From positions 2,176,001 to 2,240,000 of the forward strand of contig OZ271854.1 in assembly GCA_965601925.1 (NCBI GenBank): a DNA stretch of 64,000 nt, given 5' to 3'. The position numbers and the translations under genes were made by a program. The stretch is from Alkalispirochaeta sp. (lineage in GTDB: Bacteria > Spirochaetota > Spirochaetia > DSM-27196 > Alkalispirochaetaceae). Shown in pieces: positions 6,937-23,783 of the stretch (position 1 is its first letter; every line of letters begins with the position of its first letter). The notes under the pieces are model-generated. The model made no database searches and was not told where the DNA came from. It saw nothing but the letters and a program-made list of their open reading frames with translations.

Positions 6937-6957
6937 CGGGTGACCTGCTCCCTGAAA

Positions 6958-7758
6958 CTAGACCACTGCTTGAGTGAGTCCGTCCTCAAAGCTTCGCCAG
7001 ATTTCTTCCGGCGTGTGATTGCCAAGCGAGCTGTGTGGCCGGTACCGATTGTACTCATCGCGCCACAAAGCCAGTTTCTCCTGAGCGTCCCTCACGCCCA
7101 GGAACAGGTTCTCGTTGAGGAACTCGTCGCGTAGCTTTCCGTTGAAGCTCTCGACAGAGGAGTTCTCGATCGGCTTGCCCGGCGTGATCAGACACTGCTG
7201 AATGCCGCGCTGGATCGTCCACGCGATCATGGCCCGGGACGTGAACTCCGGCCCGTTATCACTCTTCAAACATTCCGGCTCACCGTGCATGATCGTCGAT
7301 TGCTCCAACGCCCGGATGACATCAGCGCTCGAACATGAACGAGCAATTCGTGCTGTGATCAGATACCGTGTGTACTCGTCCAACACGACCAGACACTTCA
7401 ACGACCGTCCGGATTCAGTCGTGTCGAAAACGAAATCCAATCCCCAGATCTGATTGGGCCGCATCGCTGCACTGGCCCTATTGCGCTGCACGATGAGCTT
7501 CTTCCGGCGTCGTGAGCGGAGCATCAACTGTTCCTCGCGATAGATCCGGTACACTTGCTTGTGATTCGCTTCACTATGGTCTCGCCGCAGTAACACGTGG
7601 ATCCGACGATACCCGAACCGCTTGTGCCTCTCGGCCAGTTCCTTGATGCGCGCCCGAATCCGAAGATCGTTCGGTTTCTTTGCCTCATACCGACATGTCG
7701 ATCGATGCAGCGACGCCAGTTCGCACGCTCGTCGCTCACTGACCCCATGGTGTTTCAA
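6958..7758 (-). CDS. IS3 transposase OrfB (DDE)
   Basis: WGLDF...SDNGPEF...ESFNGKLRDE...RPHSSLG. Confidence 0.95.
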   Translation of the reverse strand: MKHHGVSERRACELASLHRSTCRYEAKKPNDLRIRARIKELAERHKRFGYRRIHVLLRRDHSEANHKQVYRIYREEQLMLRSRRRKKLIVQRNRASAAMRPNQIWGLDFVFDTTESGRSLKCLVVLDEYTRYLITARIARSCSSADVIRALEQSTIMHGEPECLKSDNGPEFTSRAMIAWTIQRGIQQCLITPGKPIENSSVESFNGKLRDEFLNENLFLGVRDAQEKLALWRDEYNRYRPHSSLGNHTPEEIWRSFEDGLTQAVV

Positions 7759-7793
7759 CGCCCCGACAGCCGATCGTCGCTGATGAGGCGTCG

Positions 7794-8057
7794 TCAGTTT
7801 TTTGACAGCACCTCCTTCATCGCGTCGATCTCAAGCGCCTGGTTGGCGACCAGCCTTTTCAGTCTGGTGTTCTCGTCTTCCAGTTCTTTCAGTCGCCGCG
7901 CCTCGCTGGTGGTCATTCCGCCATAGCGAGATTTCCACCGGTACAACGTATTCTCCGCAAACCCGTACTTCCGACAGATCTCCTTCGCCGGAACACCGGA
8001 CTCGGCTTCCCCCAAGATCGCAATGATCTTCTCGACCGAATACTGCCCCTTCTTCAT
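7794..8057 (-). CDS. IS3 transposase OrfA
   Basis: HTH ICRKYG..ENTLYRWKSRYGG; LKELEDENTRLKRLVA zipper. Confidence 0.95.
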   Translation of the reverse strand: MKKGQYSVEKIIAILGEAESGVPAKEICRKYGFAENTLYRWKSRYGGMTTSEARRLKELEDENTRLKRLVANQALEIDAMKEVLSKN

Positions 8058-8129
8058 AATGTCTCTCCCTCCTGTTATATCCGGGAAAGACCCACCTTCC
8101 TGCTGGACCAGTTTTCAGGGAGCAGGTCA

Positions 8130-8280
8130 GAGGTGCGACACGAATCCTCTTTTTCATGTGTTAAGGTCGAACGAAGTGAGCCCGAAGGGCTTGGCCTTTA
8201 CACATGAAAACGAGGGCGTACAATGAAAAAACTGCGGGAGGACCTTTCGGTTTGGGCGATTATGCGAAGTAGGCTGTTCT
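8130..8280. promoter_or_regulatory. Conserved hairpin/promoter element, copy 1 (cut by IS3 on the left)
   Basis: Stem 8146-8215, inner agcccGAAgggct, TTTACA(8197)-16-TACAAT(8219); homologous to copies at 11210 and 22821. Confidence 0.75.
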
Positions 8281-8290
8281 GGTATATCGC

Positions 8291-8602
8291 CTACATCGCC
8301 CGTTGTTCCGGGAGTTTCCCAATGATCTTGCGAACTTCGTCGGTCTCAACGAGTTGATCCGTCACATATCGGTGGACGATTGAACTGATGAGCGTTTGAT
8401 AGGGGATTCCTTCCTTGACCGCCTTTTTTTTCGTCAATTGCAGATCCTCTTCCGAAATTCGCAAGCTAATAGTCTGCGTCTTTCGCGCCCGATCGAGAAT
8501 GGCTTCAATCCGTTCGCGTTCTTCACCAACGACACTTTCCATCTGATCGATGGAATCTTCGATTTCTTGTTCTTCAGGCGTCAGGTCAAATATGTTCATC
8601 AC
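8291..8602 (-). CDS. CopG/RHH antitoxin (BrnA-like)
   Basis: KTQTISLRISEEDL...GIPYQTLISSIVHRY; overlaps toxin stop. Confidence 0.85.
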   Translation of the reverse strand: MMNIFDLTPEEQEIEDSIDQMESVVGEERERIEAILDRARKTQTISLRISEEDLQLTKKKAVKEGIPYQTLISSIVHRYVTDQLVETDEVRKIIGKLPEQRAM

Positions 8603-8862
8603 GAGCCTCCATATTGTTTGTGGTATTTCCGGCTTGGGAATGCCGTTTTCAGGACGACAGCTTCATCGTCATCGACGACAAATGGAACAATCCAGGTGTA
8701 ATCACGCATTCGAAGCACGAAGTATCGTTGTCCCGGCCGGGTCGGATTTTTGATGATATCGACATATCGCTTTTCCATGATGATGCCGGCAATTTCTTCA
8801 AATGAGACGCCGCGAGTTTGCTTGAGTACCTCATTTTTGTCCTCGTCCCAGATGATTTTCAT
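8599..8862 (-). CDS. brnT: BrnT-family toxin
   Basis: IWDEDKNEVLKQTRGVSFEEI...VPFV...LKTAFPSRK. Confidence 0.85.
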   Translation of the reverse strand: MKIIWDEDKNEVLKQTRGVSFEEIAGIIMEKRYVDIIKNPTRPGQRYFVLRMRDYTWIVPFVVDDDEAVVLKTAFPSRKYHKQYGGS

Positions 8863-9012: not shown

Positions 9013-9134
9013 ATGTAACACCGAGCTGACCTGCAAGATGCGGCCCGGAGTCGCGAAGTGACGGAGGGATTGGCGCGTGCCTTGCGCATCGCAAGGCGCG
9101 TGACAAAGCAGATTGACTGGTCCAGCGTTATGTT
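9013..9134 (-). repeat. attC site, long family, IS1182 inserted at R''
   Basis: ATGTAAC-accga-GCTGACC...GGTCCAGC-gttat-GTT|IS. Confidence 0.9.
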
Positions 9135-10796
9135 GAGACTGTCGCACAACGCAGTCGTGGTCTGCTAGCATCGTGCCTGGGAGGAGCCAATGCCGAACTA
9201 CCGAGGAAACGAGGGGCAGGATCTCATGATTCCGGTGTGCCTGGATGATCAGCTGGTGCCGGGTACCATCGAACACGCCATCACCTGGATCGTCGACCAC
9301 GAGATCGATACGTCGGTGTTCGATGCAGCCTATCACAACGACCACGGCGGTCGCCCGGCCTGTGATCCGGCCGCGCTGGTGAAGATCATCTTGTTCGCCT
9401 ACTCCCGGGGCATCCTCTCCTCACGGAAGATCGAGGAAGCCTGCCGGACCAACATCGTGTTCATGGCCCTCAGTGGTGATATCCGGCCCGACCACGCCAC
9501 GATCGCCCGGTTCGTTACCGGCCATCCCGCGGCGGTTCGTCGTGTGTTCCGGGATGTGCTGATGATTGCGGCACAGGGCGATCTGATCGGTGGGGACGTG
9601 TTTGCACTGGACGGCTGCAAGATCAGCTCGAACGCCGCCCGAGAGCACGCGGGGACGCGACGGGAACTGGAGAAGAAGAGAGCGAAGCTTGAAGCACGTC
9701 TTGAGGCGATACTGCTCACTCATCGCGGCGCAGATGAGGCATGCACCTCCGATAACGACGATCAACAGGGCAGACCCGGTTCAGGGACAGCTGATCGCTA
9801 CCGGGCGCAGATCGACCGCATCAAAGGATTCCTCGACGCCCATCCACCCCGCACCGGCACCAGCGGACGCGAGGTGAAATCCAACATCACCGACAATCAG
9901 AGTGCCACACTGAAAACCGGGAGTGGCTACATCCAGGGCTATAACGCGCTGGCGATGGTGGATGCGAAGCACCAGATCGTGCTACACGCTGAACCGGTCG
10001 GTCAGATCCATGAGGCACCGCTGCTGCCACGGATGGTGCGCCGGTCACTGCATACACTGCGCAGGTTCGCACATCCCCAGGCCTGCACACCGACCATCCT
10101 CGCTGATACCAACTATTTCACCGAATCCAACGCCCGGTTCCTGATCGACTCTGATCTCGACGGCTATATCCCCGACCATCAGTTCCGGAATCGGGACATG
10201 CGATTCGCGGATCGGAGTCGATCGCGCCGGGCGGCACACCGGCGCTTCACCCAAGCCGATTTCCTCTACCAGAGCGACACCGACAGCTATCGTTGTCCGG
10301 CCGGCAAGACGTTGCGACGGCGCACCCGGGAGGTGGTTGCCGGGCGTCGTGGTACGCGCTATGAAGCGAAGCAATCAGACTGCAGTGCATGCGATCTCAC
10401 CTCCCGCTGTCTGATCCGTACTGCAACCCGGCGTAGACTCTTCCGCGGTGACGGTCCAGCCGGGACCTATGCCCAACAGATGCGTGATCGGATCGACACC
10501 GAACGGGGTCGACGGATGTACGCCAGACGCATGGGTATCGTGGAGCCGGTCTTTGCGAACATCACCGCCACCAAGGGCATGCGACGATTCACGCTCCGAG
10601 GCCGGGCGAAGGTCCGCATTCAATGGCTCCTGTACACGCTGGTGCACAACATCGAAAAGATCGCCACCACCGGGCTGATTCATCGGTTAGTCGGAGTTTG
10701 ATCCGGGTGGGTGGCGGGTTGAAGAATGCCTGGCCACGATCACTGGCCGTGAACTACTCGCTCCGCGTGGGTTCCCACGCGTTGTGCGACAGCCTC
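9135..10796 (+). mobile_element. IS1182-family element, copy 1 (1662 bp)
   Basis: IRs GAGACTGTCGCACAACGC / GCGTTGTGCGACAGCCTC (17/18); flanking GTT duplication. Confidence 0.95.
9190..10701 (+). CDS. IS1182-family DDE transposase
   Basis: SSRKIEEAC, PDHATIARF, LDGCKI, QGYN, CPAG, VEPVFANI. Confidence 0.95.
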   Translation: MPNYRGNEGQDLMIPVCLDDQLVPGTIEHAITWIVDHEIDTSVFDAAYHNDHGGRPACDPAALVKIILFAYSRGILSSRKIEEACRTNIVFMALSGDIRPDHATIARFVTGHPAAVRRVFRDVLMIAAQGDLIGGDVFALDGCKISSNAAREHAGTRRELEKKRAKLEARLEAILLTHRGADEACTSDNDDQQGRPGSGTADRYRAQIDRIKGFLDAHPPRTGTSGREVKSNITDNQSATLKTGSGYIQGYNALAMVDAKHQIVLHAEPVGQIHEAPLLPRMVRRSLHTLRRFAHPQACTPTILADTNYFTESNARFLIDSDLDGYIPDHQFRNRDMRFADRSRSRRAAHRRFTQADFLYQSDTDSYRCPAGKTLRRRTREVVAGRRGTRYEAKQSDCSACDLTSRCLIRTATRRRLFRGDGPAGTYAQQMRDRIDTERGRRMYARRMGIVEPVFANITATKGMRRFTLRGRAKVRIQWLLYTLVHNIEKIATTGLIHRLVGV

Positions 10797-10850
10797 GTTA
10801 CATTGCGACCTGCTTACCAGTATACGAGGAGATTTCCTGTTCTTCTTCTC

Positions 10851-10895
10851 TTTTTCACCGAGTGGCTGAAGCACCACGGTCAACCACCCGGTAAT
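10851..10895. repeat. Conserved hairpin downstream of the 88-aa ORF (copy A)
   Basis: accgagtggctg...caaccacccggt, shared with 22466-22510. Confidence 0.65.
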
Positions 10896-10916
10896 GATTA
10901 TTGGAATGGGGCCTTT

Positions 10917-11183
10917 CTATGAGGCCTTTTCTTGGCGGTGCGTCTGCTTGCCGGCGCGCGCCGCCACTTTGAAGATACATCCGTCGCACTGACCCTTTGT
11001 GCTTTTGCACCTGCAAGCGACGCATACGTCATAGAGATCATAATCATCAATCGCATCGAGGATGAGGCGATTCAGTGTCCTTGTCATTGGCTCATTCTTG
11101 AACCACGCCATTCGCCTGAGAGCAAACACCGCATCGCGGCTCACCTTGGGGACATACGTACCGGCAGTTTTTGTTGTGTGCAT
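10917..11183 (-). CDS. 88-aa hypothetical RHH-like protein with C-terminal Cys cluster (copy A)
   Basis: GGAGG RBS before ATG 11183; YVPKVSRDAVFALRRMAW...PMTRTL; CxxCxC...CxxC; close paralogue at 22529. Confidence 0.8.
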   Translation of the reverse strand: MHTTKTAGTYVPKVSRDAVFALRRMAWFKNEPMTRTLNRLILDAIDDYDLYDVCVACRCKSTKGQCDGCIFKVAARAGKQTHRQEKAS

Positions 11184-11209
11184 TTTCTGCACCTCCATAA
11201 TGAGATGTA

Positions 11210-11385
11210 TGCGAGACAACTCTCGCACCGGAGGTGCGACACGAATCCTCGTTTTCCTGTGTCAAGGTCGAACGCAGAGAGCCCGAAGGGCTTGGCCTTT
11301 ACACAGGGAAACGAGGACGTAGAATGAAAAAACTGCGGGAGGAAATCCTGGTTTAGGCAATTACGCGAAATAGGCCGATTCGGTT
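11210..11385. promoter_or_regulatory. Conserved hairpin/promoter element, copy 2
   Basis: Stem 11247-11316 with compensatory change; TGTCAA in left arm; TTTACA(11298)-16-TAGAAT(11320) in right arm. Confidence 0.8.
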
Positions 11386-11413
11386 TTTGCTTGTGCCGCC
11401 CATCGATGCGTTA

Positions 11414-11812
11414 CTATTTCGCCCAGTTTTCGATATCCAGGCCGTTTATTCGCTCGAAGTGTTTTTGATTGTTCGTTACCAATATCAAATTGTGAGTGAG
11501 CGCCGTTGCAGCGATCAGCAGATCCATATCGGCGACAATATTTCCTTGCTTCTCTAATGACGTTTTGATTTCTCCGAATGTCTCAACCACGGCGGGGGTG
11601 ATGTCTATGATCGGAAACAATTCAGCAATCCGGTATGCTCGAGCAAGATTCTTTTCGACTGCCTTCGATTTCTTAGCTCCGTACACAAGTTCGCCATACG
11701 TGATGACCGATAACGATTTTGGCGAGTTCCGGTATTCATGGAAATTCTGCTTCACTCGTTCATCGCCTTTCAGGCTATAAATGACGATGTCGGTATCGAT
11801 CAAATAGTTCAT
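11414..11812 (-). CDS. vapC: VapC PIN-domain toxin
   Basis: YLIDTDIVI...GELVYG...DLLIAATAL...VTNNQKHFERI. Confidence 0.95.
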   Translation of the reverse strand: MNYLIDTDIVIYSLKGDERVKQNFHEYRNSPKSLSVITYGELVYGAKKSKAVEKNLARAYRIAELFPIIDITPAVVETFGEIKTSLEKQGNIVADMDLLIAATALTHNLILVTNNQKHFERINGLDIENWAK

Positions 11813-12074
11813 TTGTATTTGTAAATCGCGCTGATTCAGTTCGTCCGTTTCGAATGGATTTCACAATATCTTCGGCCGATCGATCATCTTCCCAACTTCC
11901 AGATAGTTTCAGAAATTCATCAGTTGGATTGATATCGAAGGCGCGAGGGAGGGACAGATATTTTTCCAGGATATGGACGACTTCTTGACTGATTGAACGT
12001 CGTTCTTTTGATGCGCGAACGCGCAACGATTCATAGAGTTTTTCGTCGATATCACGTACTTGCAAATTGGCCAT
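11775..12074 (-). CDS. FitA/Arc-like RHH antitoxin
   Basis: MANLQVRDIDEKLYESLRVRASKERRSISQEV; upstream of vapC. Confidence 0.88.
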   Translation of the reverse strand: MANLQVRDIDEKLYESLRVRASKERRSISQEVVHILEKYLSLPRAFDINPTDEFLKLSGSWEDDRSAEDIVKSIRNGRTESARFTNTNELFDRYRHRHL

Positions 12075-12240: not shown

Positions 12241-12362
12241 ATGTAACACCGAGCTGACCTGCAAGATGCGGCCCGGAGTCGCGAAGTGACGGAGGGATTG
12301 GCGCGTGCCTTGCGCATCGCAAGGCGCGTGACAAAGCAGATTGACTGGTCCAGCGTTATGTT
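12241..12362 (-). repeat. attC site, long family, IS1182 inserted at R''
   Basis: Identical to 9013-9134. Confidence 0.9.
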
Positions 12363-14024
12363 GAGACTGTCGCACAACGCAGTCGTGGTCTGCTAGCATC
12401 GTGCCTGGGAGGAGCCAATGCCGAACTACCGAGGAAACGAGGGGCAGGATCTCATGATTCCGGTGTGCCTGGATGATCAGCTGGTGCCGGGTACCATCGA
12501 ACACGCCATCACCTGGATCGTCGACCACGAGATCGATACGTCGGTGTTCGATGCAGCCTATCACAACGACCACGGCGGTCGCCCGGCCTGTGATCCGGCC
12601 GCGCTGGTGAAGATCATCTTGTTCGCCTACTCCCGGGGCATCCTCTCCTCACGGAAGATCGAGGAAGCCTGCCGGACCAACATCGTGTTCATGGCCCTCA
12701 GTGGTGATATCCGGCCCGACCACGCCACGATCGCCCGGTTCGTTACCGGCCATCCCGCGGCGGTTCGTCGTGTGTTCCGGGATGTGCTGATGATTGCGGC
12801 ACAGGGCGATCTGATCGGTGGGGACGTGTTTGCACTGGACGGCTGCAAGATCAGCTCGAACGCCGCCCGAGAGCACGCGGGGACGCGACGGGAACTGGAG
12901 AAGAAGAGAGCGAAGCTTGAAGCACGTCTTGAGGCGATACTGCTCACTCATCGCGGCGCAGATGAGGCATGCACCTCCGATAACGACGATCAACAGGGCA
13001 GACCCGGTTCAGGGACAGCTGATCGCTACCGGGCGCAGATCGACCGCATCAAAGGATTCCTCGACGCCCATCCACCCCGCACCGGCACCAGCGGACGCGA
13101 GGTGAAATCCAACATCACCGACAATCAGAGTGCCACACTGAAAACCGGGAGTGGCTACATCCAGGGCTATAACGCGCTGGCGATGGTGGATGCGAAGCAC
13201 CAGATCGTGCTACACGCTGAACCGGTCGGTCAGATCCATGAGGCACCGCTGCTGCCACGGATGGTGCGCCGGTCACTGCATACACTGCGCAGGTTCGCAC
13301 ATCCCCAGGCCTGCACACCGACCATCCTCGCTGATACCAACTATTTCACCGAATCCAACGCCCGGTTCCTGATCGACTCTGATCTCGACGGCTATATCCC
13401 CGACCATCAGTTCCGGAATCGGGACATGCGATTCGCGGATCGGAGTCGATCGCGCCGGGCGGCACACCGGCGCTTCACCCAAGCCGATTTCCTCTACCAG
13501 AGCGACACCGACAGCTATCGTTGTCCGGCCGGCAAGACGTTGCGACGGCGCACCCGGGAGGTGGTTGCCGGGCGTCGTGGTACGCGCTATGAAGCGAAGC
13601 AATCAGACTGCAGTGCATGCGATCTCACCTCCCGCTGTCTGATCCGTACTGCAACCCGGCGTAGACTCTTCCGCGGTGACGGTCCAGCCGGGACCTATGC
13701 CCAACAGATGCGTGATCGGATCGACACCGAACGGGGTCGACGGATGTACGCCAGACGCATGGGTATCGTGGAGCCGGTCTTTGCGAACATCACCGCCACC
13801 AAGGGCATGCGACGATTCACGCTCCGAGGCCGGGCGAAGGTCCGCATTCAATGGCTCCTGTACACGCTGGTGCACAACATCGAAAAGATCGCCACCACCG
13901 GGCTGATTCATCGGTTAGTCGGAGTTTGATCCGGGTGGGTGGCGGGTTGAAGAATGCCTGGCCACGATCACTGGCCGTGAACTACTCGCTCCGCGTGGGT
14001 TCCCACGCGTTGTGCGACAGCCTC
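12363..14024 (+). mobile_element. IS1182-family element, copy 2
   Basis: Same IRs, length and GTT duplication as copy 1. Confidence 0.95.
12418..13929 (+). CDS. IS1182-family transposase
   Basis: Protein identical to 9190-10701. Confidence 0.95.
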   Translation: MPNYRGNEGQDLMIPVCLDDQLVPGTIEHAITWIVDHEIDTSVFDAAYHNDHGGRPACDPAALVKIILFAYSRGILSSRKIEEACRTNIVFMALSGDIRPDHATIARFVTGHPAAVRRVFRDVLMIAAQGDLIGGDVFALDGCKISSNAAREHAGTRRELEKKRAKLEARLEAILLTHRGADEACTSDNDDQQGRPGSGTADRYRAQIDRIKGFLDAHPPRTGTSGREVKSNITDNQSATLKTGSGYIQGYNALAMVDAKHQIVLHAEPVGQIHEAPLLPRMVRRSLHTLRRFAHPQACTPTILADTNYFTESNARFLIDSDLDGYIPDHQFRNRDMRFADRSRSRRAAHRRFTQADFLYQSDTDSYRCPAGKTLRRRTREVVAGRRGTRYEAKQSDCSACDLTSRCLIRTATRRRLFRGDGPAGTYAQQMRDRIDTERGRRMYARRMGIVEPVFANITATKGMRRFTLRGRAKVRIQWLLYTLVHNIEKIATTGLIHRLVGV

Positions 14025-14039
14025 GTTATATGGCGGGCA

Positions 14040-16031
14040 TTAGGCGCCTTGATACCATTCTGACGGTATTAACTTGCGTCCGGCACGCCATTCCTCAACC
14101 TCATGTATATTCCCTATTTCGCCGTATATGCTTTTATCTGCGTGATCCAGAATGATGGCCTGCCATTCGCCATCACTTTCTGCCACGGCATCGGCAAGTG
14201 TACGGAAAATTTGCCTTACAGCTTGCTCATCATCTTCGTCATCGTATCGAGAATCCTCTTCTTCTACTTCCTCACCGCTCTTTACCTTAGGGAAATAGAC
14301 CTGACTTGGCTGATCAAATACGGCGAAACTCGGTACTACCGACCAGCTTTGCTCTAAAAAAAATTTTTGAAGCGCGCATATCAGAGCTAAATGGAAGGAA
14401 ACCCAGTTTGATGCGCTGCCAATTTCTGACAAATAATGCCAGTTTCTATCGGTACTTATTACCTGCATATTCAAGTCTTTAACGTTCAATGACGGTGGTG
14501 TTTCGCGGTATTTTGCTTCTACGTCTAAAGTTTGAAGATAGTTCAAAATGTATTGCGAAATACGCATTTTAGCCGCAGAGAGACGCCTTTCCACCGCTTT
14601 AGGATCAATAACTTGCAAAAGATGCTCTCGGCGGGCTACAAGAGTTGCAATACGTTCTTCGAGCTCGCCACCGGCTTGAAGCTTTTCAAATGTTTCAACC
14701 GAGGCTTTCAGATGGCCCAAGAACAAAAAAAGAGTTTTTGCCTTTTGAAACTCTTCCTTTGTTTTTTGGTCACGAAGAAACAGCGTGTCATACCGATCTC
14801 TTAGAATTCTTTGCTCCTCGATTAAGCTTTCAAGTTCTTTATTTAAACGTTCTTCTTCTCTGTCGAATGATGTCGGGATTTCCTCAACGCGCTTCGACTC
14901 GGCTTCATATTCCTCGAACACCGAAGCTATTCTTGACATTTCTTCACTACTTCTTGGATGATCATCGCTTCCACATAGAGGGCAGACCTTGGCATCAGAG
15001 GCCAGATCTGTTAGCCAGTTGGAAATATGCAACCTGTCAGAACGTCTTTTTACAGTCACGCTATACTCTGTTAGACTGGTCTTAAGCTGCTTCACGTCGT
15101 CGAGTCGTTTACGTAGCTTTGCCAATCGCTGGCTTAAATCATCCTCTTCCTTGTCTAATTCAATTAGCGCCTGACTCGCTTTTTGAAAATTACTTAACTC
15201 TGCAATTGAATAATTCGGGGCCTCTTGGACTAGTTGTCTTGCGATTAGGATTAGTTCGTCTGGGTCCGAAACATCTCGTGGGTCTCGATCGAGCAAACCA
15301 TATTGTTGGGCTATTCTGAGTTGCCCCTGTAGATTATTCGACCACGATTTTGAGTGAGCTTTCGCTCGTTCAAAATCGCGTTCAAGTGCTTTTAGACGCT
15401 GTTCGAGCTCCTGCAGTTCCTGTCTAGCTTTCAGAACCTCTATATTCTCTGCGCCCAGTATGAAAGGAAGCCAGTTGCGAAGTCGTTCGCGATGTTCATG
15501 AGCATGCGTTTTATAGAATAGGATGTTCTGATTTGCGACTATGTCTTGGCTTTGAAAGACCAACGCAACCAAATCTCGGAAGCCCAAACGTGCTTGATAG
15601 GCTTTTCTTTCGAACTCGCCCTCGAGAGAAAAATATGGCACATTGGAAATTGTGTTTAAGATGTTTTTGACCCCTTCGGGGTTCTCGTTGGCCGTTTCAA
15701 TGACGGGGGGAACTGAAATTTCCTTTGCGCGGGTCACATAGAAATTTGAAGACACCTTATTGTCTTTCGGCACGGCACGAGCGATAAGAATTTGCTCAGA
15801 TTGTGTTTGAAATGCGACACCGTACCAGGAGGCATAGTCGCGTATGACATCAATAGGCACATTACATTCTGTTGAAGCAAGACAGTAATCAATCAGTGGT
15901 ATTATTGCAGATTTTCCTGTTCGAGATGCGCCGGTTATCACGTTCAGCTTTCCTGGTACAAATTCAACAACTCTTGGTGGGAATGTTGAATCGATTGGCC
16001 AAATTAAAACTTTTAACAGTTGGAATTGCAT
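14040..16031 (-). CDS. lmuB: Lamassu LmuB-like SMC/ABC ATPase (DUF3732)
   Basis: Walker A GASRTGKS, coiled coil with CPLC hook, GSASNW signature, FDQPSQVYFP; ATG coupled to upstream TAA. Confidence 0.88.
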   Translation of the reverse strand: MQFQLLKVLIWPIDSTFPPRVVEFVPGKLNVITGASRTGKSAIIPLIDYCLASTECNVPIDVIRDYASWYGVAFQTQSEQILIARAVPKDNKVSSNFYVTRAKEISVPPVIETANENPEGVKNILNTISNVPYFSLEGEFERKAYQARLGFRDLVALVFQSQDIVANQNILFYKTHAHEHRERLRNWLPFILGAENIEVLKARQELQELEQRLKALERDFERAKAHSKSWSNNLQGQLRIAQQYGLLDRDPRDVSDPDELILIARQLVQEAPNYSIAELSNFQKASQALIELDKEEDDLSQRLAKLRKRLDDVKQLKTSLTEYSVTVKRRSDRLHISNWLTDLASDAKVCPLCGSDDHPRSSEEMSRIASVFEEYEAESKRVEEIPTSFDREEERLNKELESLIEEQRILRDRYDTLFLRDQKTKEEFQKAKTLFLFLGHLKASVETFEKLQAGGELEERIATLVARREHLLQVIDPKAVERRLSAAKMRISQYILNYLQTLDVEAKYRETPPSLNVKDLNMQVISTDRNWHYLSEIGSASNWVSFHLALICALQKFFLEQSWSVVPSFAVFDQPSQVYFPKVKSGEEVEEEDSRYDDEDDEQAVRQIFRTLADAVAESDGEWQAIILDHADKSIYGEIGNIHEVEEWRAGRKLIPSEWYQGA

Positions 16032-16534
16032 TACAAGACAACCTTCAGGTATTGTGCCGCCGATGAAACACTTATTTGGGAAAACCATTTGCCGAGAATT
16101 TGTGCTTTTTCCCCATTTTTCATATGCATTTCATTAATTAACCCTCTTTTTATATTCCCATATTCATGAATTCGTGGATAAATCTTTGCGGAATCTTTAT
16201 CCCAAACTATAAGCCCCGACTTTATTGCAATATCAATTGCCGAAATTGTTACGCTTCGCTTCTTTTTTATTCTTTCTTGTAGAGAAACCAGCAAATCGAT
16301 TTCTTTCTTCTGCTCGAAACCTCTTACGTAAGACTGAAGGCTTTTCCGGCGATTATTAACAGAAAGCAAGAAATGATCGGTTGTGAGCAGTGGATACGCC
16401 ATGAAGTGTAATAATGCCACAGGAGCGTCTCCAGTTGAATGATGACTAACGAAACCAACAGTGAAGTTCCAGAGTTGGTATGCTCCTATCACTGGAGAAT
16501 TCCAGTTTCTAACTTCATCTACTAAGCTTTCCAT
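16031..16534 (-). CDS. lmuC: ABC three-component middle component (LmuC-like)
   Basis: NSPVIGAYQLWNF...AQILGKWF; lies between effector and ATPase. Confidence 0.8.
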   Translation of the reverse strand: MESLVDEVRNWNSPVIGAYQLWNFTVGFVSHHSTGDAPVALLHFMAYPLLTTDHFLLSVNNRRKSLQSYVRGFEQKKEIDLLVSLQERIKKKRSVTISAIDIAIKSGLIVWDKDSAKIYPRIHEYGNIKRGLINEMHMKNGEKAQILGKWFSQISVSSAAQYLKVVL

Positions 16535-16546
16535 GTTTTGCTCTCT

Positions 16547-17692
16547 CTATGCTTTTTGAATCAAGTTTTGCCAGCGTGGATGCCAACCCAGGAGTTCGTT
16601 ATCTGCTAATGTATGATACGTCCCCGCAATGGTTGAGCTTGGAGGAGGCATGTTCCTTATTGTTGCTTGATGAGTTGAGCAATCAAGTAGCAACAGTTGT
16701 CCTCGGACTTCTTCGGGTTTGTCTTGTTGAGTTAGAAAAATTCTCTTTTTTGAATGGACCCAGAACTCCGATAACTTGTTCTGAAAATCCACAGCGGAGT
16801 CCTCGTCTATGATTTCATTTTCGATCCACTTTTGACGGTTGACTTTCGCCTTTAGAAACGCAGTGACCGACTCAACAATCTCTTCTTCTGTGCAGTCAAT
16901 TAGTTCTAACTGTTTAATATATGAAGGGCGTAGCTTTAATTGCATTTTTTTCATTTTATCGTCGATAGGATCTATCAAAGTGAAATCTATCAACTCTCTT
17001 TGTCGCACACGATCAAAAAGAACGGATTTCTCTTTGTAAAAATCGTCCCAAGTAATGCAAGCTATTTGGTTTTCAGCGATCATTTCGGTCAGTGTATTGT
17101 GCAACCAGCCAGTAAGATTTTGAACAAGGAAAGGGATTTGGGTTTCAGGTACAAGTATTCGCTTTAGTTCGTCACGTACTTCATCTAAGCCCGCACCGTC
17201 TCCTATTATTAAACTAAATTTCTTAATTATTTCAATAAATAAATTTTCATTATTCAATAAATAGCTATAATATTTCCAAATATTGTGTTCATTATTAATA
17301 TCAGAGAAGCCTTTCTTGATTTCTGAAATAACTTGACGAGCGTCATCGGTATCTTTCGCAGAATTTAGTCTATTAACAAGGGCTGGCTTACCATGATTGT
17401 TGGCGTAGAGAATGAAGCATGTGGTTTCCGTGTCAATATTGCTTTCTTGAACAAGAATTGCCCAGTTATAAAATGTTTTCCAAAGATTTGTAGATCTATC
17501 TGTTAAAGGATTTCCCAGGACTGAGGACTTATCTTCCTCAGAAACCATATCTCCTTCACGAGAAGTTACAGATACATCTCCATTGAACTCAACATATACA
17601 GTTCCACCGGGGCCAGTACGCAATAAGTGAAAAAGTGCTCGAGGAATTTGGATAGAATAGCCCAGAAATTGACCAGATGCATTCGAACTCAT
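16547..17692 (-). CDS. lmuA: Lamassu effector LmuA-like (Cap4-like nuclease plus C-terminal domain)
   Basis: ASGQFLGYSIQ..RAL, E...D...EEDK, NPLTDRSTNLWKT, GTYHTLAD...GWHPRW. Confidence 0.8.
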   Translation of the reverse strand: MSSNASGQFLGYSIQIPRALFHLLRTGPGGTVYVEFNGDVSVTSREGDMVSEEDKSSVLGNPLTDRSTNLWKTFYNWAILVQESNIDTETTCFILYANNHGKPALVNRLNSAKDTDDARQVISEIKKGFSDINNEHNIWKYYSYLLNNENLFIEIIKKFSLIIGDGAGLDEVRDELKRILVPETQIPFLVQNLTGWLHNTLTEMIAENQIACITWDDFYKEKSVLFDRVRQRELIDFTLIDPIDDKMKKMQLKLRPSYIKQLELIDCTEEEIVESVTAFLKAKVNRQKWIENEIIDEDSAVDFQNKLSEFWVHSKKRIFLTQQDKPEEVRGQLLLLDCSTHQATIRNMPPPSSTIAGTYHTLADNELLGWHPRWQNLIQKA

Positions 17693-17844: not shown

Positions 17845-17961
17845 ATATAACACCGAGCTGACCTGCAAGATGCGGCCCGGAGCCGTAGGCGGAGGGATTG
17901 GCGCGGTTTTTGCGCACGCAAAAGCCGTGACAAAGCAGATTGACTGGTCCAGCGTTATGTT
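17845..17961 (-). repeat. attC site, long family, IS1182 inserted at R''
   Basis: ATATAAC-accga-GCTGACC...GGTCCAGC-gttat-GTT|IS with variant internal hairpins. Confidence 0.9.
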
Positions 17962-19623
17962 GAGACTGTCGCACAACGCAGTCGTGGTCTGCTAGCATCG
18001 TGCCTGGGAGGAGCCAATGCCGAACTACCGAGGAAACGAGGGGCAGGATCTCATGATTCCGGTGTGCCTGGATGATCAGCTGGTGCCGGGTACCATCGAA
18101 CACGCCATCACCTGGATCGTCGACCACGAGATCGATACGTCGGTGTTCGATGCAGCCTATCACAACGACCACGGCGGTCGCCCGGCCTGTGATCCGGCCG
18201 CGCTGGTGAAGATCATCTTGTTCGCCTACTCCCGGGGCATCCTCTCCTCACGGAAGATCGAGGAAGCCTGCCGGACCAACATCGTGTTCATGGCCCTCAG
18301 TGGTGATATCCGGCCCGACCACGCCACGATCGCCCGGTTCGTTACCGGCCATCCCGCGGCGGTTCGTCGTGTGTTCCGGGATGTGCTGATGATTGCGGCA
18401 CAGGGCGATCTGATCGGTGGGGACGTGTTTGCACTGGACGGCTGCAAGATCAGCTCGAACGCCGCCCGAGAGCACGCGGGGACGCGACGGGAACTGGAGA
18501 AGAAGAGAGCGAAGCTTGAAGCACGTCTTGAGGCGATACTGCTCACTCATCGCGGCGCAGATGAGGCATGCACCTCCGATAACGACGATCAACAGGGCAG
18601 ACCCGGTTCAGGGACAGCTGATCGCTACCGGGCGCAGATCGACCGCATCAAAGGATTCCTCGACGCCCATCCACCCCGCACCGGCACCAGCGGACGCGAG
18701 GTGAAATCCAACATCACCGACAATCAGAGTGCCACACTGAAAACCGGGAGTGGCTACATCCAGGGCTATAACGCGCTGGCGATGGTGGATGCGAAGCACC
18801 AGATCGTGCTACACGCTGAACCGGTCGGTCAGATCCATGAGGCACCGCTGCTGCCACGGATGGTGCGCCGGTCACTGCATACACTGCGCAGGTTCGCACA
18901 TCCCCAGGCCTGCACACCGACCATCCTCGCTGATACCAACTATTTCACCGAATCCAACGCCCGGTTCCTGATCGACTCTGATCTCGACGGCTATATCCCC
19001 GACCATCAGTTCCGGAATCGGGACATGCGATTCGCGGATCGGAGTCGATCGCGCCGGGCGGCACACCGGCGCTTCACCCAAGCCGATTTCCTCTACCAGA
19101 GCGACACCGACAGCTATCGTTGTCCGGCCGGCAAGACGTTGCGACGGCGCACCCGGGAGGTGGTTGCCGGGCGTCGTGGTACGCGCTATGAAGCGAAGCA
19201 ATCAGACTGCAGTGCATGCGATCTCACCTCCCGCTGTCTGATCCGTACTGCAACCCGGCGTAGACTCTTCCGCGGTGACGGTCCAGCCGGGACCTATGCC
19301 CAACAGATGCGTGATCGGATCGACACCGAACGGGGTCGACGGATGTACGCCAGACGCATGGGTATCGTGGAGCCGGTCTTTGCGAACATCACCGCCACCA
19401 AGGGCATGCGACGATTCACGCTCCGAGGCCGGGCGAAGGTCCGCATTCAATGGCTCCTGTACACGCTGGTGCACAACATCGAAAAGATCGCCACCACCGG
19501 GCTGATTCATCGGTTAGTCGGAGTTTGATCCGGGTGGGTGGCGGGTTGAAGAATGCCTGGCCACGATCACTGGCCGTGAACTACTCGCTCCGCGTGGGTT
19601 CCCACGCGTTGTGCGACAGCCTC
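17962..19623 (+). mobile_element. IS1182-family element, copy 3
   Basis: Same IRs, length and GTT duplication. Confidence 0.95.
18017..19528 (+). CDS. IS1182-family transposase
   Basis: Protein identical to the other copies. Confidence 0.95.
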   Translation: MPNYRGNEGQDLMIPVCLDDQLVPGTIEHAITWIVDHEIDTSVFDAAYHNDHGGRPACDPAALVKIILFAYSRGILSSRKIEEACRTNIVFMALSGDIRPDHATIARFVTGHPAAVRRVFRDVLMIAAQGDLIGGDVFALDGCKISSNAAREHAGTRRELEKKRAKLEARLEAILLTHRGADEACTSDNDDQQGRPGSGTADRYRAQIDRIKGFLDAHPPRTGTSGREVKSNITDNQSATLKTGSGYIQGYNALAMVDAKHQIVLHAEPVGQIHEAPLLPRMVRRSLHTLRRFAHPQACTPTILADTNYFTESNARFLIDSDLDGYIPDHQFRNRDMRFADRSRSRRAAHRRFTQADFLYQSDTDSYRCPAGKTLRRRTREVVAGRRGTRYEAKQSDCSACDLTSRCLIRTATRRRLFRGDGPAGTYAQQMRDRIDTERGRRMYARRMGIVEPVFANITATKGMRRFTLRGRAKVRIQWLLYTLVHNIEKIATTGLIHRLVGV

Positions 19624-19624
19624 G

Positions 19625-22306
19625 TTATGTTGATTCTTTGAGAGCGTACTTTCGCTCCCTCTTTTCGAATGCCTCGACACCACCCTCAAGGTTTAATAGC
19701 GAGTTTCGGTGGGATAGGTCTTCAATTGTAGCAAAGTCGACGTTGGTCTTAGCCTCGGGCATTGATAAGATAGTAGTTAGCTCGGCGTCAGCATTGACTA
19801 CAATGTTGGCATTGTGTGTAGCGAATATCATCTGCCGTGAAGACTTCTTTTCCTTGATCAGGTCAACCAGGTAGTTCGCGATCAAAGAACTATCTAGATG
19901 GGCCTCTGGTTCATCAATGATGATTGGGTTATTTCCAAACAACAACAGAATCACGATCACCGTCGTGCAACGTTGACCAAACGAGGACGCTTCGATTGGC
20001 CGTCCTCGATATCTCACATTGACTCGAATCACTTCGTTAAAATCGAAATAGGCGACTCGTGCAAGATGTTTATAAATCGAAAAATTAATCTCATCGGCGA
20101 ATACCTTCGCAAGATATCGTCGAGAATTTGTGTCCCCAACAACGTGGTTACGTAAGTCATCTATGGATACACTCTCGTCTATTAGTGCTTTCGGATCGAT
20201 TCCAAACAGACACTCTTTGACCCTATCAGACCTATAGTTGAACTCTGTTCCCAAATCACCGAAATGATCTATGAAACGCGCGAACAGATTCTCTGTTGCT
20301 GTTTCTTCGTCTATCCCTACATTCAGTTCGATTCTATCAATTTCGTTTGGATTACTCCTGTTAACGTTCTCCAAAACTGATTTCAATGCGCCTATTTCGT
20401 TGGTGACTACACTAACCAGGTTGTTGAATGAAGCTTGAAGCTTCGATTCATCGTGTTCCTCAATCTGATCGTCGATCATCGATATCCGCGAATCAATATC
20501 GTCAAGTTCGGCTGATAGAGAATCAACGAGGCTCCCTGAGTTCTTTATATCTTCTATGTTCTCAGGTGTTACTCCGATTCCCTCAAGATATTGACCCAGT
20601 TCGTCTTGTCTTTCTCGATGTTGAGTCTGGAGTTTATTTTCAGTCTCGATTTCTTTATCGAAGATAGACTCGGACAGGAACGATGTGTGTAGCTGCGAGA
20701 GCCCTTTCAAAAACTCGTTATATGCGACCAGATAATGGGAGCTATCTTCATTGTTTTGGACTGGAGGATGGTTCTTAAGCAACTCATTGACGTCATCTCT
20801 CAGTCTTTCCAAACGTGTTCGTTCGGCCCTAATACCGACAAGTTTTCTATTAGATTCGGTCACGGAATCGTTCAGGGTTTTGTAGTCGTCTCCTTCAATT
20901 GTCGCTGATACTTTCTTGTTGCTGTCTAAACTCAAGACAATACGACGACGTTCAGTGATTGCCTGTTGCTTCTCGACTAATAGACGGATGATATCTTCTA
21001 CTTCGGAAGTAGCTGTTGTTACAGCCAGTTCTTTCTCCGCGACATGAGAGTTACGGCGTCGAATCCGATCGTAAATGGCGTCGGTGAACTTCCGAGGATT
21101 GGTGGCATATTCTTCGATCTCGTTCTGTTCGAGAAACTCTAACCCCTCCGCTGAGTGGTCCACCTGAACAAAATCCGAATGACTTACATTTGAACCATCG
21201 GGGGTGATCGTGTTTTCCTTGTTAAACGTTGTAGAGGCCCCACTACGGATTACATCGACCAGCACGTTGAGCAAAGTGCTTTTCCCGGTTCCCCGGCCCC
21301 CGGTTACACACGTCAGAAAGGGACTAAGTTCCCAGTCTATCCTTACACCGGCGAAACAGAATGTCGAAGGTTCCGTACCGGTTCTGTTGATGATCACATT
21401 TTCGGGATAGTCCATATTCATTCTGGTTATACGTTTAGGCGCAAAAGGAGGACGAGCCTCGCCGATCTTTACTCTGTGCGCAGGCTCGAAGAAGACCTGG
21501 CGGAGCCCTTCAAAAGTTAGATCAGCTTTTATCCAAGTGATGTCTTTGTGGATTTGGCCGTTTTCTTCGCATCGTTTTCCGAGATAGTGATCAAGATCGT
21601 CGAACGAATGAGCATCGCTTCCAGAAAAAACGGGTTTGGGTATTGATGCCGAACTTGAGTCATCATATCGATTGGCAGACAGAAACCATTCAACGTTCTG
21701 TGATCCACCAAAAAATCCATCGGAAATCTTATCGATCTCATCGCTTATTATGCGTTTGCGTGGAGATTTGGAATCCGCTCGAATACCGGCATTGTTTGCG
21801 GCGGCAAGAATAAGAAATGGACGCATATCACCGAATACTTCGTGGAGTTTTTCTAATACTTCATGCTGGTTGACGCATGCAGAGACATATTCCGAAGGTT
21901 CGAGCTCAATACAAGATACTCTTGCGCCGTTTATAGTTTTGGATATCTTCAACTCATGCAGAAATCTCTCGATCTTCGACCGATCAAGTTGACTATCGAA
22001 AATGACATGGAGGTTTACCTCTTCCGCTGCTTTGTTGACTGACACATCAAGACGAAGCTCGATATTCGGGAAAAAAACTTTACCTGAGTTGGGATAAAGG
22101 CGCTTGTATTCGCTTAGGAACTCGAAATGACGGGCGACGGAGAAATAGTCGGTGATTCCAAACGCAATAACATCTGATTCATGAAGTTTGCGACAAAAAT
22201 CAACCAGACTGTTAGCGTTTGTCGCCAAATCGTAGCCGTCATTGAGATTTGTACCCGGAGGATGCACATGCAGATCCCATTTCCGCCAAATGGACCCGGT
22301 TGACAT
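19625..22306 (-). CDS. PHP domain + SMC-like ATPase (TrlF/Ppl-like anti-phage protein)
   Basis: WRKWDLHVH, ITDY, GSDAH (PHP); GGRGTGKST, SFGQR, IIIDEPE, FATHN; stop codon inside the R'' box ACATAAC. Confidence 0.85.
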   Translation of the reverse strand: MSTGSIWRKWDLHVHPPGTNLNDGYDLATNANSLVDFCRKLHESDVIAFGITDYFSVARHFEFLSEYKRLYPNSGKVFFPNIELRLDVSVNKAAEEVNLHVIFDSQLDRSKIERFLHELKISKTINGARVSCIELEPSEYVSACVNQHEVLEKLHEVFGDMRPFLILAAANNAGIRADSKSPRKRIISDEIDKISDGFFGGSQNVEWFLSANRYDDSSSASIPKPVFSGSDAHSFDDLDHYLGKRCEENGQIHKDITWIKADLTFEGLRQVFFEPAHRVKIGEARPPFAPKRITRMNMDYPENVIINRTGTEPSTFCFAGVRIDWELSPFLTCVTGGRGTGKSTLLNVLVDVIRSGASTTFNKENTITPDGSNVSHSDFVQVDHSAEGLEFLEQNEIEEYATNPRKFTDAIYDRIRRRNSHVAEKELAVTTATSEVEDIIRLLVEKQQAITERRRIVLSLDSNKKVSATIEGDDYKTLNDSVTESNRKLVGIRAERTRLERLRDDVNELLKNHPPVQNNEDSSHYLVAYNEFLKGLSQLHTSFLSESIFDKEIETENKLQTQHRERQDELGQYLEGIGVTPENIEDIKNSGSLVDSLSAELDDIDSRISMIDDQIEEHDESKLQASFNNLVSVVTNEIGALKSVLENVNRSNPNEIDRIELNVGIDEETATENLFARFIDHFGDLGTEFNYRSDRVKECLFGIDPKALIDESVSIDDLRNHVVGDTNSRRYLAKVFADEINFSIYKHLARVAYFDFNEVIRVNVRYRGRPIEASSFGQRCTTVIVILLLFGNNPIIIDEPEAHLDSSLIANYLVDLIKEKKSSRQMIFATHNANIVVNADAELTTILSMPEAKTNVDFATIEDLSHRNSLLNLEGGVEAFEKRERKYALKEST

Positions 22307-22465: not shown

Positions 22466-22510
22466 TTTTTTACCGAGTGGCTGAAGCACGAAGCCCAACC
22501 ACCCGGTAAT
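22466..22510. repeat. Conserved hairpin downstream of the 88-aa ORF (copy B)
   Basis: Matches 10851-10895. Confidence 0.65.
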
Positions 22511-22528
22511 AACTAATGGGACTAAGCC

Positions 22529-22795
22529 TTACGAGGCTTTTTCTTGGCGGCATGTTTGCTTGTGGGCGCGTGCCGCCACTTTGAAAATGCATCCATCGCA
22601 TGGACCCTTCGGACTTTTGCACCGACAGGCGGCGCAGACATCATAGAGGTCATAATCATCGATTGCATCGAGAATGAGGCGATCCAATGTCCTGGTCATT
22701 GGCTCATTCTTGAACCACGCCATTCGCCTGAGAGCAAACACCGCATCGCGGCTCACCTTGGGGACATACGTACCAGCGCCAATCTTTTTGTGCAT
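22529..22795 (-). CDS. 88-aa hypothetical RHH-like protein with Cys cluster (copy B)
   Basis: Paralogue of 10917-11183: same length, RBS and conserved Cys. Confidence 0.8.
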   Translation of the reverse strand: MHKKIGAGTYVPKVSRDAVFALRRMAWFKNEPMTRTLDRLILDAIDDYDLYDVCAACRCKSPKGPCDGCIFKVAARAHKQTCRQEKAS

Positions 22796-22820
22796 TTCCT
22801 GCACCTCCATGAATGATGTA

Positions 22821-22982
22821 TGCGGGAAAGCCATGCTTGGTCCCGCACCGGAGGTGCGCGACGCTCCTCGTTTTCATGTGTCAAGGTCGAACGAAGTGAG
22901 CCCGAAGGGCTTGGCCTTTACACATGAAAAAGAGGACGTACCATGAGAAGACTGCGGGAGCAGGTTAGGTTGAGGCAATTTC
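22821..22982. promoter_or_regulatory. Conserved hairpin/promoter element, copy 3
   Basis: Same stem and inner hairpins; TTTACA(22917)-16-TACCAT(22939). Confidence 0.8.
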
Positions 22983-22988
22983 GGGGTG

Positions 22989-23309
22989 TTACCGGAGGTT
23001 TCTTCGGAGCAATATGTCTTCGATGTTTCGCCGCCCATCAATTACGGCAAGGATCAATACTCGATCGGATTCTTGCGTATAGAACACGCGCCATGGCGCG
23101 ACGATGATCTCTCGATATTTGGTGATGTTCTGCCGTTCGAGTTCCGGAATGACCCGTCCGGTTTCCGGAAATTCTGATAGTCGCGATACTTCGGAATCAA
23201 TCTTTTCTGCGATGTTCTTCGCAATAGTCGCTGAAGAATGACTGATAATCCAATCAATGATTTCTCGGAAGTCTATCGCCGCGCTCGCGGCCCATGTTAT
23301 TTGTGCCAT
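22989..23309 (-). CDS. RelE/ParE-family toxin
   Basis: ITWAASAAIDFREI...FPETGRVIPE...YREIIVAPWRVFY...AVIDGRR. Confidence 0.92.
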   Translation of the reverse strand: MAQITWAASAAIDFREIIDWIISHSSATIAKNIAEKIDSEVSRLSEFPETGRVIPELERQNITKYREIIVAPWRVFYTQESDRVLILAVIDGRRNIEDILLRRNLR

Positions 23310-23315
23310 CGAACA

Positions 23316-23588
23316 TCAATCAGGAATACGACTATAGATGTCGTCCATGACCGATTGATGATCGACGGTTCGGTTGTCTGCAATATCCTTTTCACTTTGC
23401 GATATGAGTTTCATCAGTCCGAGGGCATCTTTCATTTCTTGATAGGTTTCGGTGTCGAGTAGTACCGCTCGTGCTTCACCATTTTGAGTGATTAATATCG
23501 GATTATGAGTGTCATTGACTTGCCGCAACATTTCCGCGGCGTTGCTTTTCACATACGAAATAGGGCGAATATCTGAACGAAGATTCAT
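23316..23588 (-). CDS. Phd/YefM antitoxin
   Basis: IRPISYVKSNAAEML...PILITQNGEARAVL. Confidence 0.92.
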   Translation of the reverse strand: MNLRSDIRPISYVKSNAAEMLRQVNDTHNPILITQNGEARAVLLDTETYQEMKDALGLMKLISQSEKDIADNRTVDHQSVMDDIYSRIPD

Positions 23589-23662
23589 AACCAGCCTCCC
23601 GGTTCAAATAACGTACTTTATTTAGTCTGTTTACGCAATTCATGTGGGGTAACGCAGAAGCA

Positions 23663-23783
23663 ACATAACACCGAGCTGACCTGCAAGATGCGGCCCGGAG
23701 CCGCAGGCGGAGGGATTGGCGCGACTTTTGCGCATGCAAAAGTCGTGACAAAGCAGATTGACTGGTCCAGCGTTATGTTATGA
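23663..23783 (-). repeat. attC site, long family, intact and IS-free (121 bp)
   Basis: Minus strand TCATAAC-ataac-GCTGGACC...GGTCAGC-tcggt-GTTATGT. Confidence 0.92.

Follow-up and report, generated by a model that had tools for sequence, protein, structure and literature searches.

A short gene found in two copies within a 64,000-nucleotide stretch of an Alkalispirochaeta sp. genome (GenBank assembly GCA_965601925.1, contig OZ271854.1, positions 2,176,001 to 2,240,000; hereafter the window) encodes what we read, with roughly even confidence, as a homodimeric ribbon-helix-helix (RHH) protein that carries a C-terminal four-cysteine knuckle, likely metal-binding, and whose role would be that of a small transcriptional regulator, DNA-binding and derived from mobile elements. 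So understood, it is a new branch of the well-known RHH class, an unnamed RHH-plus-Cys4 family that here has private structured flanks, and not a new kind of system. Positions given below are those of the window unless they are marked as genome coordinates.

Gene Copies and Selection

Copy 1 (10917–11183, minus strand; studied by translation, substitution rates, and homologues) and copy 2 (22529–22795, minus strand; translation, alignment, and substitution rates) both include their stop codon. Translated from the minus strand, each open reading frame (ORF) gives 88 residues plus a stop, and the two proteins are 89% identical, with 10 of the 88 residues unlike. GGAGG stands 8 nt ahead of the ATG in both, and the motifs YVPKVSRDAVFALRRMAW, PMTRTL, and CxxCxC-x6-CxxC are found in both. 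At the DNA level the copies are separated by 25.5 synonymous and 13.5 non-synonymous differences, a ratio of non-synonymous to synonymous substitution rates (dN/dS) of 0.10 by the Nei-Gojobori method. What the initial annotation had taken directly from the letters, namely equal-length 88-residue copies, the GGAGG, many synonymous differences, and the named motifs, is all borne out by the sequence.

The single 5.05-Mb contig holds four full copies of the gene, two of them outside the window (genome 3557173–3557439 and 3563668–3563934) and 5–11 kb from an integron integrase. Pairwise dN/dS among the four is 0.05–0.17 in all six pairs, with dS of 0.43–1.01; copy 1 gives 0.05–0.10 against the other three. 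By region, the proportions of synonymous and non-synonymous differences (pS and pN) are 0.44 and 0.20 in the N-terminal tail and 0.42 and 0.03 in the RHH part. Some copies have an in-frame ATG further upstream; because that ATG is missing from the copy ending at genome 3557439, which has CTG in its place, the conserved start is MH(T/K). A ratio of 0.05–0.17 in every pair indicates a translated gene under purifying selection and no chance ORF, and it lies far from the value near 1 that the initial annotation had named as grounds for giving up its reading. Judged from their sequences, the four copies are old and each has been maintained independently.

Protein Family

Neither window copy has any match in Pfam, NCBIfam, or PADLOC at E-values up to 10, and the sole rows obtained from PHROGs are two families of unknown function (E 0.1). 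A characterized family with an unrelated role, the other outcome that would have told against the earlier proposal, was not among the matches. A word-indexed search found 17 close homologues, 80%–97% identical and all unnamed. Exhaustive phmmer comparison with 1.84 billion representatives found 39 cluster representatives (50% identity) at E ≤ 1e-3, of which four reach E ≤ 1e-10. Five of the 39 were left out of the first family alignment (A2): P0035, P0049, and P0056 are long proteins with repeats, matched via several short stretches (Ig_7, Calx-beta, and a Cys-rich repeat), and P0044 and P0045 are without the C-terminal part. The remaining 34 representatives and seven close homologues make up the 41 rows of A2, and a profile search with A2 found at least 627 clusters (90% identity) at E ≤ 1e-5 among 2,507 candidates. 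None of the best 120 of these 627 relatives has a precomputed Pfam domain, and the names among the 120 listed are "hypothetical protein," "recombinational DNA repair protein RecR" (four), and "predicted Zn-ribbon and HTH transcriptional regulator" (one).

A second alignment (A7) of 113 family sequences identifies R23, R24, W27, M33, C54, C57, and C69 as invariant and Y10, P12, L22, A26, P32, T34, and C66 as conserved in at least 90% of sequences. The family consensus reads MAYTPELS...LRRIAW...PMTKTLE...VCxxC(K/R)D..xCxxCxF. One relative is a fusion with a RadC-like JAB domain, and a search of phage records with this fusion protein returned matches only to its RadC part. Several longer metagenomic members (155–174 residues: P0058–P0060, P0073, P0075, P0087, and P0112) carry a second conserved C-terminal domain, without a Pfam match, that reads ..QVSVL(I/V)SKK(I/V)GKNFCSWS...

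Predicted Fold and Dimer

AlphaFold2 models built from the two alignments have a mean predicted local distance difference test score (pLDDT) of 82 (A2) and 80 (A7), and both have a predicted template modeling score (pTM) of 0.61. Both show an extended segment at residues 1–15, a helix at 16–29, and a second helix at 33–45/47, followed in the C-terminal part by a short helix (50–56), a cysteine-bearing loop, and a helix from residue 70. When compared by VIA-align with the whole PDB (48,161 chains), both models returned lists composed almost wholly of RHH proteins, aligned over residues ~7–50. The best match in each case was the RHH domain of PutA (model 1, Z 5.2, root-mean-square deviation 3.4, 44 residues aligned; model 2, Z 5.6, deviation 2.5 Å, 44 of 44 target residues), followed by Rv0298, CdbA, HP0222, MazE9, NikR, SvtR, Arc, AmrZ, TraM, ParD, omega, and ParG. 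Just three row titles name the RHH fold (2rbf, 7ycv, and 2bnw); Arc, NikR, AmrZ, omega, ParG, ParD, FitA, TraM, NikA, MatP, TacA, and MazE6/9 we take to be RHH proteins as well, and at least three rows (NasR, COMMD9, and pA104R) are not. The support for the fold comes from the consistency of the lists and the full coverage of small target domains, not from the score; a domain of 45 residues can hardly reach a higher Z. Among named clusters of the ESM-Atlas, the nearest are RHH_9, RHH_5, and RHH_1 at 0.89–0.90, which serve as leads only.

A homodimer was modeled as two chains with two zinc ions. Its ipSAE interface score is 0.58 (runs of 0.54, 0.58, and 0.59), compared with 0.00 for the best of three controls. 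The mark applied to this score was attained by 20 of 30 proteins solved as one-chain pairs and by 1 of 23 solved as single chains, counts that hold only roughly here, given our own alignment and the included zinc. Between runs at least 81% of contacts are shared, the partner pLDDT is at least 67, and the modeled interface comprises, in both copies, residues 10–15, both helices, and residues 56–58 and 69–71. By prediction only, then, the protein has the ~45-residue β-α-α fold that defines the RHH superfamily and an intertwined homodimer with both N-terminal strands in the interface.

A number of results weigh against this reading. Even at E up to 10 the protein fits none of the RHH models in Pfam, NCBIfam, or PHROGs, and none of the 39 representatives reaches the cut-off of any curated RHH model. 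Neither in the PDB nor in BFVD did Foldseek find a match at E ≤ 0.001: the PDB list is headed by Arc, ORF56, AmrZ, and CopG (best E 0.66), and Arc-type RHH, NikA, repressor, and CopG-like proteins are among the BFVD rows. The VIA-align Z-scores of 5–6 are under the tool's level for anything more than a common arrangement of elements. Because RHH dimers are already solved, the dimer score may reflect mere likeness to them. Profile searches of PDB sequences gave nothing below E 0.04, the best match at that value being the N-terminus of an aspartyl protease, and we discarded these matches as cysteine-motif noise. The hhalign probability was below 2% against two RHH proteins, the window's FitA-like VapB and a phage CopG-like protein, a weak test since each target was a single sequence. 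To our knowledge, neither a proline in the presumed ribbon (P12) nor an invariant RR..W in helix 1 is a standard RHH feature, and the C-terminal cysteine part was modeled and searched only within the full-length chain. The ribbon-helix-helix assignment of the initial annotation is thus supported by structure prediction only (the AlphaFold2 models, the VIA-align lists, and the dimer controls) and left without backing by Pfam RHH models and by Foldseek.

The Cysteine Knuckle

In the 113 family sequences C54, C57, and C69 are invariant and C66 is conserved in at least 90%, giving the two CxxC pairs of a Cys4 module. The fifth cysteine, C59 of CxxCxC, is confined to the close subfamily, where it occurs in 18 of 18 sequences, and two relatives are missing the third cysteine. 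Metal binding by such a module is plausible, and the four-cysteine knuckle taken as a whole likely binds a metal. Relatives have sub-threshold matches to zf-piccolo, zf-CXXC, and B-box models, and one has such a match to 2Fe-2S ferredoxin (19.6 bits, cut-off 21).

Distribution and Setting of Relatives

The family is sparsely distributed around this genome. No member was found in the 40 genomes of relatives searched, and 3 of 400 other genomes of the same phylum carry one. The sole match in a scan of genome contigs, a 12-residue stretch in a Rhodobacteraceae metagenome-assembled genome, was rejected as a chance match, and none of 401 genomes of that organism's phylum carries a member; two scans of metagenome contigs for close homologues returned no relative. 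Distant relatives were found in several settings. At two loci the gene is divergent from an XRE-type repressor; a further two, both in one genome, lie in prophage-like regions that encode a major head protein; on two IMG/VR contigs its neighbors are small early genes, with a small terminase and a Holliday-junction resolvase close by; and a Thiospirochaeta plasmid carries one more relative, annotated as hypothetical. The distant-relative loci have no partner gene in common, and a large upstream inverted repeat was seen at none of the six such loci compared. These settings (phage early regions, prophages, a plasmid, and XRE neighbors) fit a small mobile-element regulator.

Integron Setting and Proposed Action

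The first 25 kb of the window are an attC array with sites of ~115 nt that run AACATAAC...GTTATGTT. A full-length site, from AACATAAC to GTTATGTT, lies at 23660–23781 (minus strand) on the Phd side of the copy 2 cassette and belongs to repeat families D6 and D7. The genes among the attC sites are mostly on the minus strand and comprise toxin-antitoxin (TA) pairs, an ABC-3C defense system, an AAA_21 ATPase, and three copies of an IS1182-family insertion sequence (IS). The integron integrase is encoded at genome 3568638–3569561 (396.7 bits against a curated cut-off of 265), 5–11 kb from the other two copies; together with the attC array, this identifies the gene as integron cargo.

Type II TA genes stand directly upstream on the same strand in all four copies, and also at a remnant of the module that an IS3-family element has interrupted. 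Copy 1 is preceded by VapB (FitA-like RHH) and VapC (PIN) at 11414–12074 (minus; PF22513, 39.4 bits, and PF01850, 63.9 bits); upstream of copy 2 are Phd and ParE at 22989–23588 (minus; PF02604, 59.3 bits, and PF05016, 56.3 bits); and upstream of the remnant are BrnT and a BrnA-like gene at 8291–8862 (minus), where PF12441 scores above its cut-off (30.1 bits) and the BrnT match to PF04365 (27.1 bits) falls under the cut-off of 34.5. The copy at genome 3557173–3557439 follows Phd-ParE, and that at 3563668–3563934 follows ParE, with no Phd ORF recovered. The upstream pairs come from three families (VapBC, Phd-ParE, and BrnTA), each complete with its own antitoxin. The three ParE-linked cassettes are whole-cassette duplicates whose likeness ends at the 3′ stem-loop; most 60-column windows are 77%–100% identical over the TA genes and 78%–93% over the RHH gene, a few being lower. 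No downstream gene is shared by the four copies, which are followed by an IS-interrupted attC, the gene for an 893-residue ATPase, a HigA-like XRE gene, and, on the opposite strand, a methylase block. The conserved adjacent cognate toxin gene expected of a type II antitoxin is accordingly not seen, as the downstream neighbors differ in all four cases.

Within the proposed scheme, residues 9–15 (T-Y-V-P-K-V-S) of two chains would form an antiparallel ribbon entering the DNA major groove, with helices 16–29 and 33–47 making up an intertwined dimer core. The CxxC...CxxC knuckle (C54, C57, C66, and C69) would hold a structural metal and pack on the partner chain. We infer that the gene probably borrows the promoter of the upstream TA pair, because cassettes are generally promoter-less and TA cassettes have promoters of their own according to a study of Vibrio cholerae integrons (PMC13108822), which describes cassette arrays as mostly silent apart from that. 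The leader's predicted anti-Shine-Dalgarno segment would mask the ribosome-binding site and so gate translation, and autoregulation is our default guess, as for such regulators.

Other residents of the array were noted in passing. The IS1182-family elements are identical and encode a 503-residue DDE transposase (window 9090–10800, 12318–14030, and 17917–19630; genome 3564820–3566331), and each abuts the AACATAAC end of an attC site. The ABC-3C system lies inside the array at 14040–17692 (minus; G+C 0.40–0.45) and consists of a DUF3732 ATPase, MC3, and a CTD7 effector-associated protein. The 893-residue protein directly downstream of copy 2 (19625–22306, minus) is of low G+C and has a C-terminal AAA_21 (AbiEii-like) ATPase part; its N-terminal 680 residues have no Pfam match. 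Between the integrase-proximal copies (genome 3558640–3563413, plus strand) are a Vsr-like endonuclease, two large unnamed proteins, and a C5 DNA methyltransferase-like gene, all recognized only by eye from ORF translations.

Structured Flanks

The leader of copy 1 (11184–11241, minus) is predicted to pair an anti-Shine-Dalgarno (anti-SD) segment, CACCUCC (plus-strand coordinates 11230–11236), with the Shine-Dalgarno (SD) sequence GGAGGUG (11190–11196), and the leader of copy 2 (22796–22862, minus) is predicted to form the same SD-masking structure. In all four copies the predicted pairing encloses an inner hairpin, which shows one compensatory change from A-U to G-C. The copy 1 leader folds at −27.4 kcal/mol (z −5.1, none of 200 shuffles being as good) with an SD unpaired probability of 0.001; the copy 2 leader folds at −32.4 kcal/mol (z −4.6) with an unpaired probability of 0.0; and over the four leaders this probability is 0.00–0.15. 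A stem-loop follows the 3′ end of all four genes. After copy 1 (10851–10915, minus) it has a 15-bp stem in which G·U pairs occur on the gene-sense strand only, and it folds at −23.0 kcal/mol in the sense direction (z −2.7), compared with z −0.15 antisense; the one after copy 2 (22466–22530, minus) belongs to repeat family D8.

Further upstream lies a 110-nt hairpin (copy 1, 11236–11345, minus, from RNA folds; copy 2, 22855–22962, minus, from repeat comparison and folds), whose 16-bp outer stem includes one pair that is compensatory between copies and whose inner stem ends in a UUCG loop. There are four in the 5.05 Mb, each flanked by a TA pair on one side and by this gene or its remnant on the other: three of the four gene copies have one, and the fourth sits at the remnant (8130–8283, minus; repeat family D4), where the IS3-family element cut after CGCACCTC. 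The hairpin RNA folds at −48.8 kcal/mol on the plus strand (z −6.1) and at −36.6 kcal/mol in gene sense (z −3.9). It was not found in the genomes of 60 relatives, which are also without the gene. The copy at genome 3563668–3563934 has lost it by deletion between two 9-bp ACCTCCGGT repeats, which also took the stop codon of ParE; in this cassette (genome 3563867–3564301) ParE runs ~38 extra codons over the leader into the RHH gene, out of frame. Of the fifth module only the upstream hairpin is left, cut at 8129/8130, with no remainder of the gene beyond the IS3-family element (~6943–8129, minus; OrfA 7794–8057, OrfB 6958–7758). The flanks of this element carry no matching target duplication, and the missing part of the module was therefore probably lost by a deletion next to the IS.

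The hairpin is not an attC site, being without the R″ (RYYYAAC) and R′ (GTTRRRY) boxes of the genome's own attC sites and without blastn similarity to them, and, with no T-run after it on either strand, it was also rejected as a terminator. Rfam gave no match at gathering score in the window and none at E ≤ 1 over 10780–11420, which covers hairpin, leader, and stem-loop. Four marine and coral-reef metagenome runs contain many diverged copies of the module, in 3 to 60 contig pieces per run. These contigs diverge into unlike sequences at 11341/11342, the outer edge of the hairpin, and at 10797 they run into an intact attC where copy 1 has an IS. As a separate observation, a sigma-70-like promoter motif, TTTACA-N16-TA(G/C)(A/C)AT, lies in the hairpin arm on the plus strand (11298–11325 and 22917–22944) and is kept in all four hairpins (also at ~8200 and in genome 3557495–3557604). 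It is directed antisense into the 3′-terminal part of the TA genes and is overlapped by a short plus-strand ORF start (M-K/R-K/R-L-R-E) conserved for only seven codons.

Alternative Explanations

The setting of the relatives among unnamed phage and prophage early genes, with one member fused to the RadC-like JAB domain, would also suit an early protein of phage type whose target is a host or defense protein, not DNA, and whose RHH-like core is only a scaffold for dimerization. The window's arrays are rich in defense genes (ABC-3C and the AAA_21 ATPase), and the anti-CRISPR AcrIE10 is among the rows of the second structure search (Z 3.8). We nevertheless regard this as unlikely, as T9, T11, K13, and a T34/T36 helix cap appear from the alignment to be placed as in DNA-binding RHH proteins, and at two loci the gene takes a Cro-like position opposite an XRE repressor. 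Slightly less credible still is an antitoxin-like RHH protein, either orphan or a third component, that uses its Cys-rich C-terminus to neutralize a toxin by protein contact and binds DNA as a secondary activity. RHH antitoxins account for many of the best structural matches (Rv0298, MazE9, TacA, VapB12, ParD2, FitA, and PrpA) and every copy directly follows a TA pair in a TA-rich array, but the pairs belong to three families that each bring their own antitoxin, no downstream gene is conserved across the four copies, and the distant relatives are solitary in phage early regions.

The initial annotation had suggested that the protein might bind the hairpin or control cassette maintenance. Spelled out, the target would be the private 110-nt hairpin or the leader, as cruciform, single-stranded DNA, or RNA, and hairpin, gene, and 3′ stem-loop would together be one self-regulating or cassette-stabilizing module. 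The exclusive placement of the four hairpins directly 5′ of the gene or its remnant, the lack of any match to them in the 60 relatives, which also lack the gene, and the end of the metagenomic module match near the hairpin's outer edge (11341/11342) would fit such an idea. Yet the copy that lost its hairpin is still under purifying selection (dN/dS 0.09–0.17), none of the six distant-relative loci has a comparable upstream inverted repeat, the better fold is on the strand opposite the gene, and RHH proteins are known as binders of double-stranded DNA; we found no support for the suggestion and consider a hairpin or leader target improbable. We hold it equally improbable that the cysteines carry an iron-sulfur cluster or a redox disulfide in place of structural zinc, making the protein a redox- or metal-responsive switch with NikR-like logic. 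The five cysteines of CxxCxC-x6-CxxC are invariant in the 18 close sequences and one relative approaches the 2Fe-2S ferredoxin cut-off, but family-wide there are only four cysteines in a two-CxxC pattern typical of zinc knuckles, the remaining sub-threshold matches are to zinc-finger models, and two relatives do without the third cysteine. The most far-reaching proposal, in which hairpin, leader, gene, and 3′ stem-loop form a portable module behind TA promoters and the protein senses metal or redox state, binds the element, and gates cassette expression or recombination, we think very improbable.

Significance

If the protein is indeed an RHH regulator with a metal-binding knuckle, a family of at least 627 clusters (90% identity) without Pfam, NCBIfam, or PDB coverage now has a fold and a function that can be put to the test. 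The combination of an RHH core with a short Cys4 knuckle is uncommon; full-text searches of the partly accessible literature found no such cassette or phage family, though absence there is no proof. A cassette gene that stands behind TA pairs of three families and has a leader predicted to mask its ribosome-binding site is also a case in which one can check how a passenger might still be expressed and yet restrained in arrays described as mostly silent. None of these findings on the RHH-Cys family and its cassettes overturns current understanding.

Comparison with Known Systems

The name RecR, given by JGI to 4 of the 120 relatives listed, reflects a shared CxxC...CxxC motif and a weak profile match to RecR (4o6o, E 1.1). 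RecR itself has ~200 residues with HhH, Cys4, and Toprim domains. We rejected the identity, as the present protein has 88 residues, neither HhH nor Toprim domain, and no Pfam RecR match; the name is apparently an automatic mislabel. The RHH antitoxins (ParD, FitA/VapB, MazE9, and TacA) share the predicted fold and a TA-rich neighborhood, but here no conserved cognate toxin gene lies alongside and the upstream TA pairs are already complete. NikR offers another parallel, as its N-terminal RHH domain was matched at Z 4.7–5.1 and the present protein, too, continues beyond its RHH core into a likely metal-binding C-terminus. The C-terminal domain of NikR is an ACT-like tetramerization domain of ~80 residues that holds nickel through His and Cys, whereas the present protein has just a short CxxC-x5–8-CxxC knuckle and no sequence relation to NikR.

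Also close are Arc and Mnt of phage P22, CopG of pMV158, and omega, RHH repressors that work alone and regulate mobile elements. They are of a similar size class, with a ribbon starting at residues 2–10, a β-α-α core and a symmetric dimer, both of them predicted here, and they too are borne by phages, plasmids, or cassettes. Unlike them, the present family matches no sequence model, carries the invariant motifs Y-x-P (ribbon) and RR..W (helix 1), and adds 35 residues of Cys4 knuckle and helix to the core.

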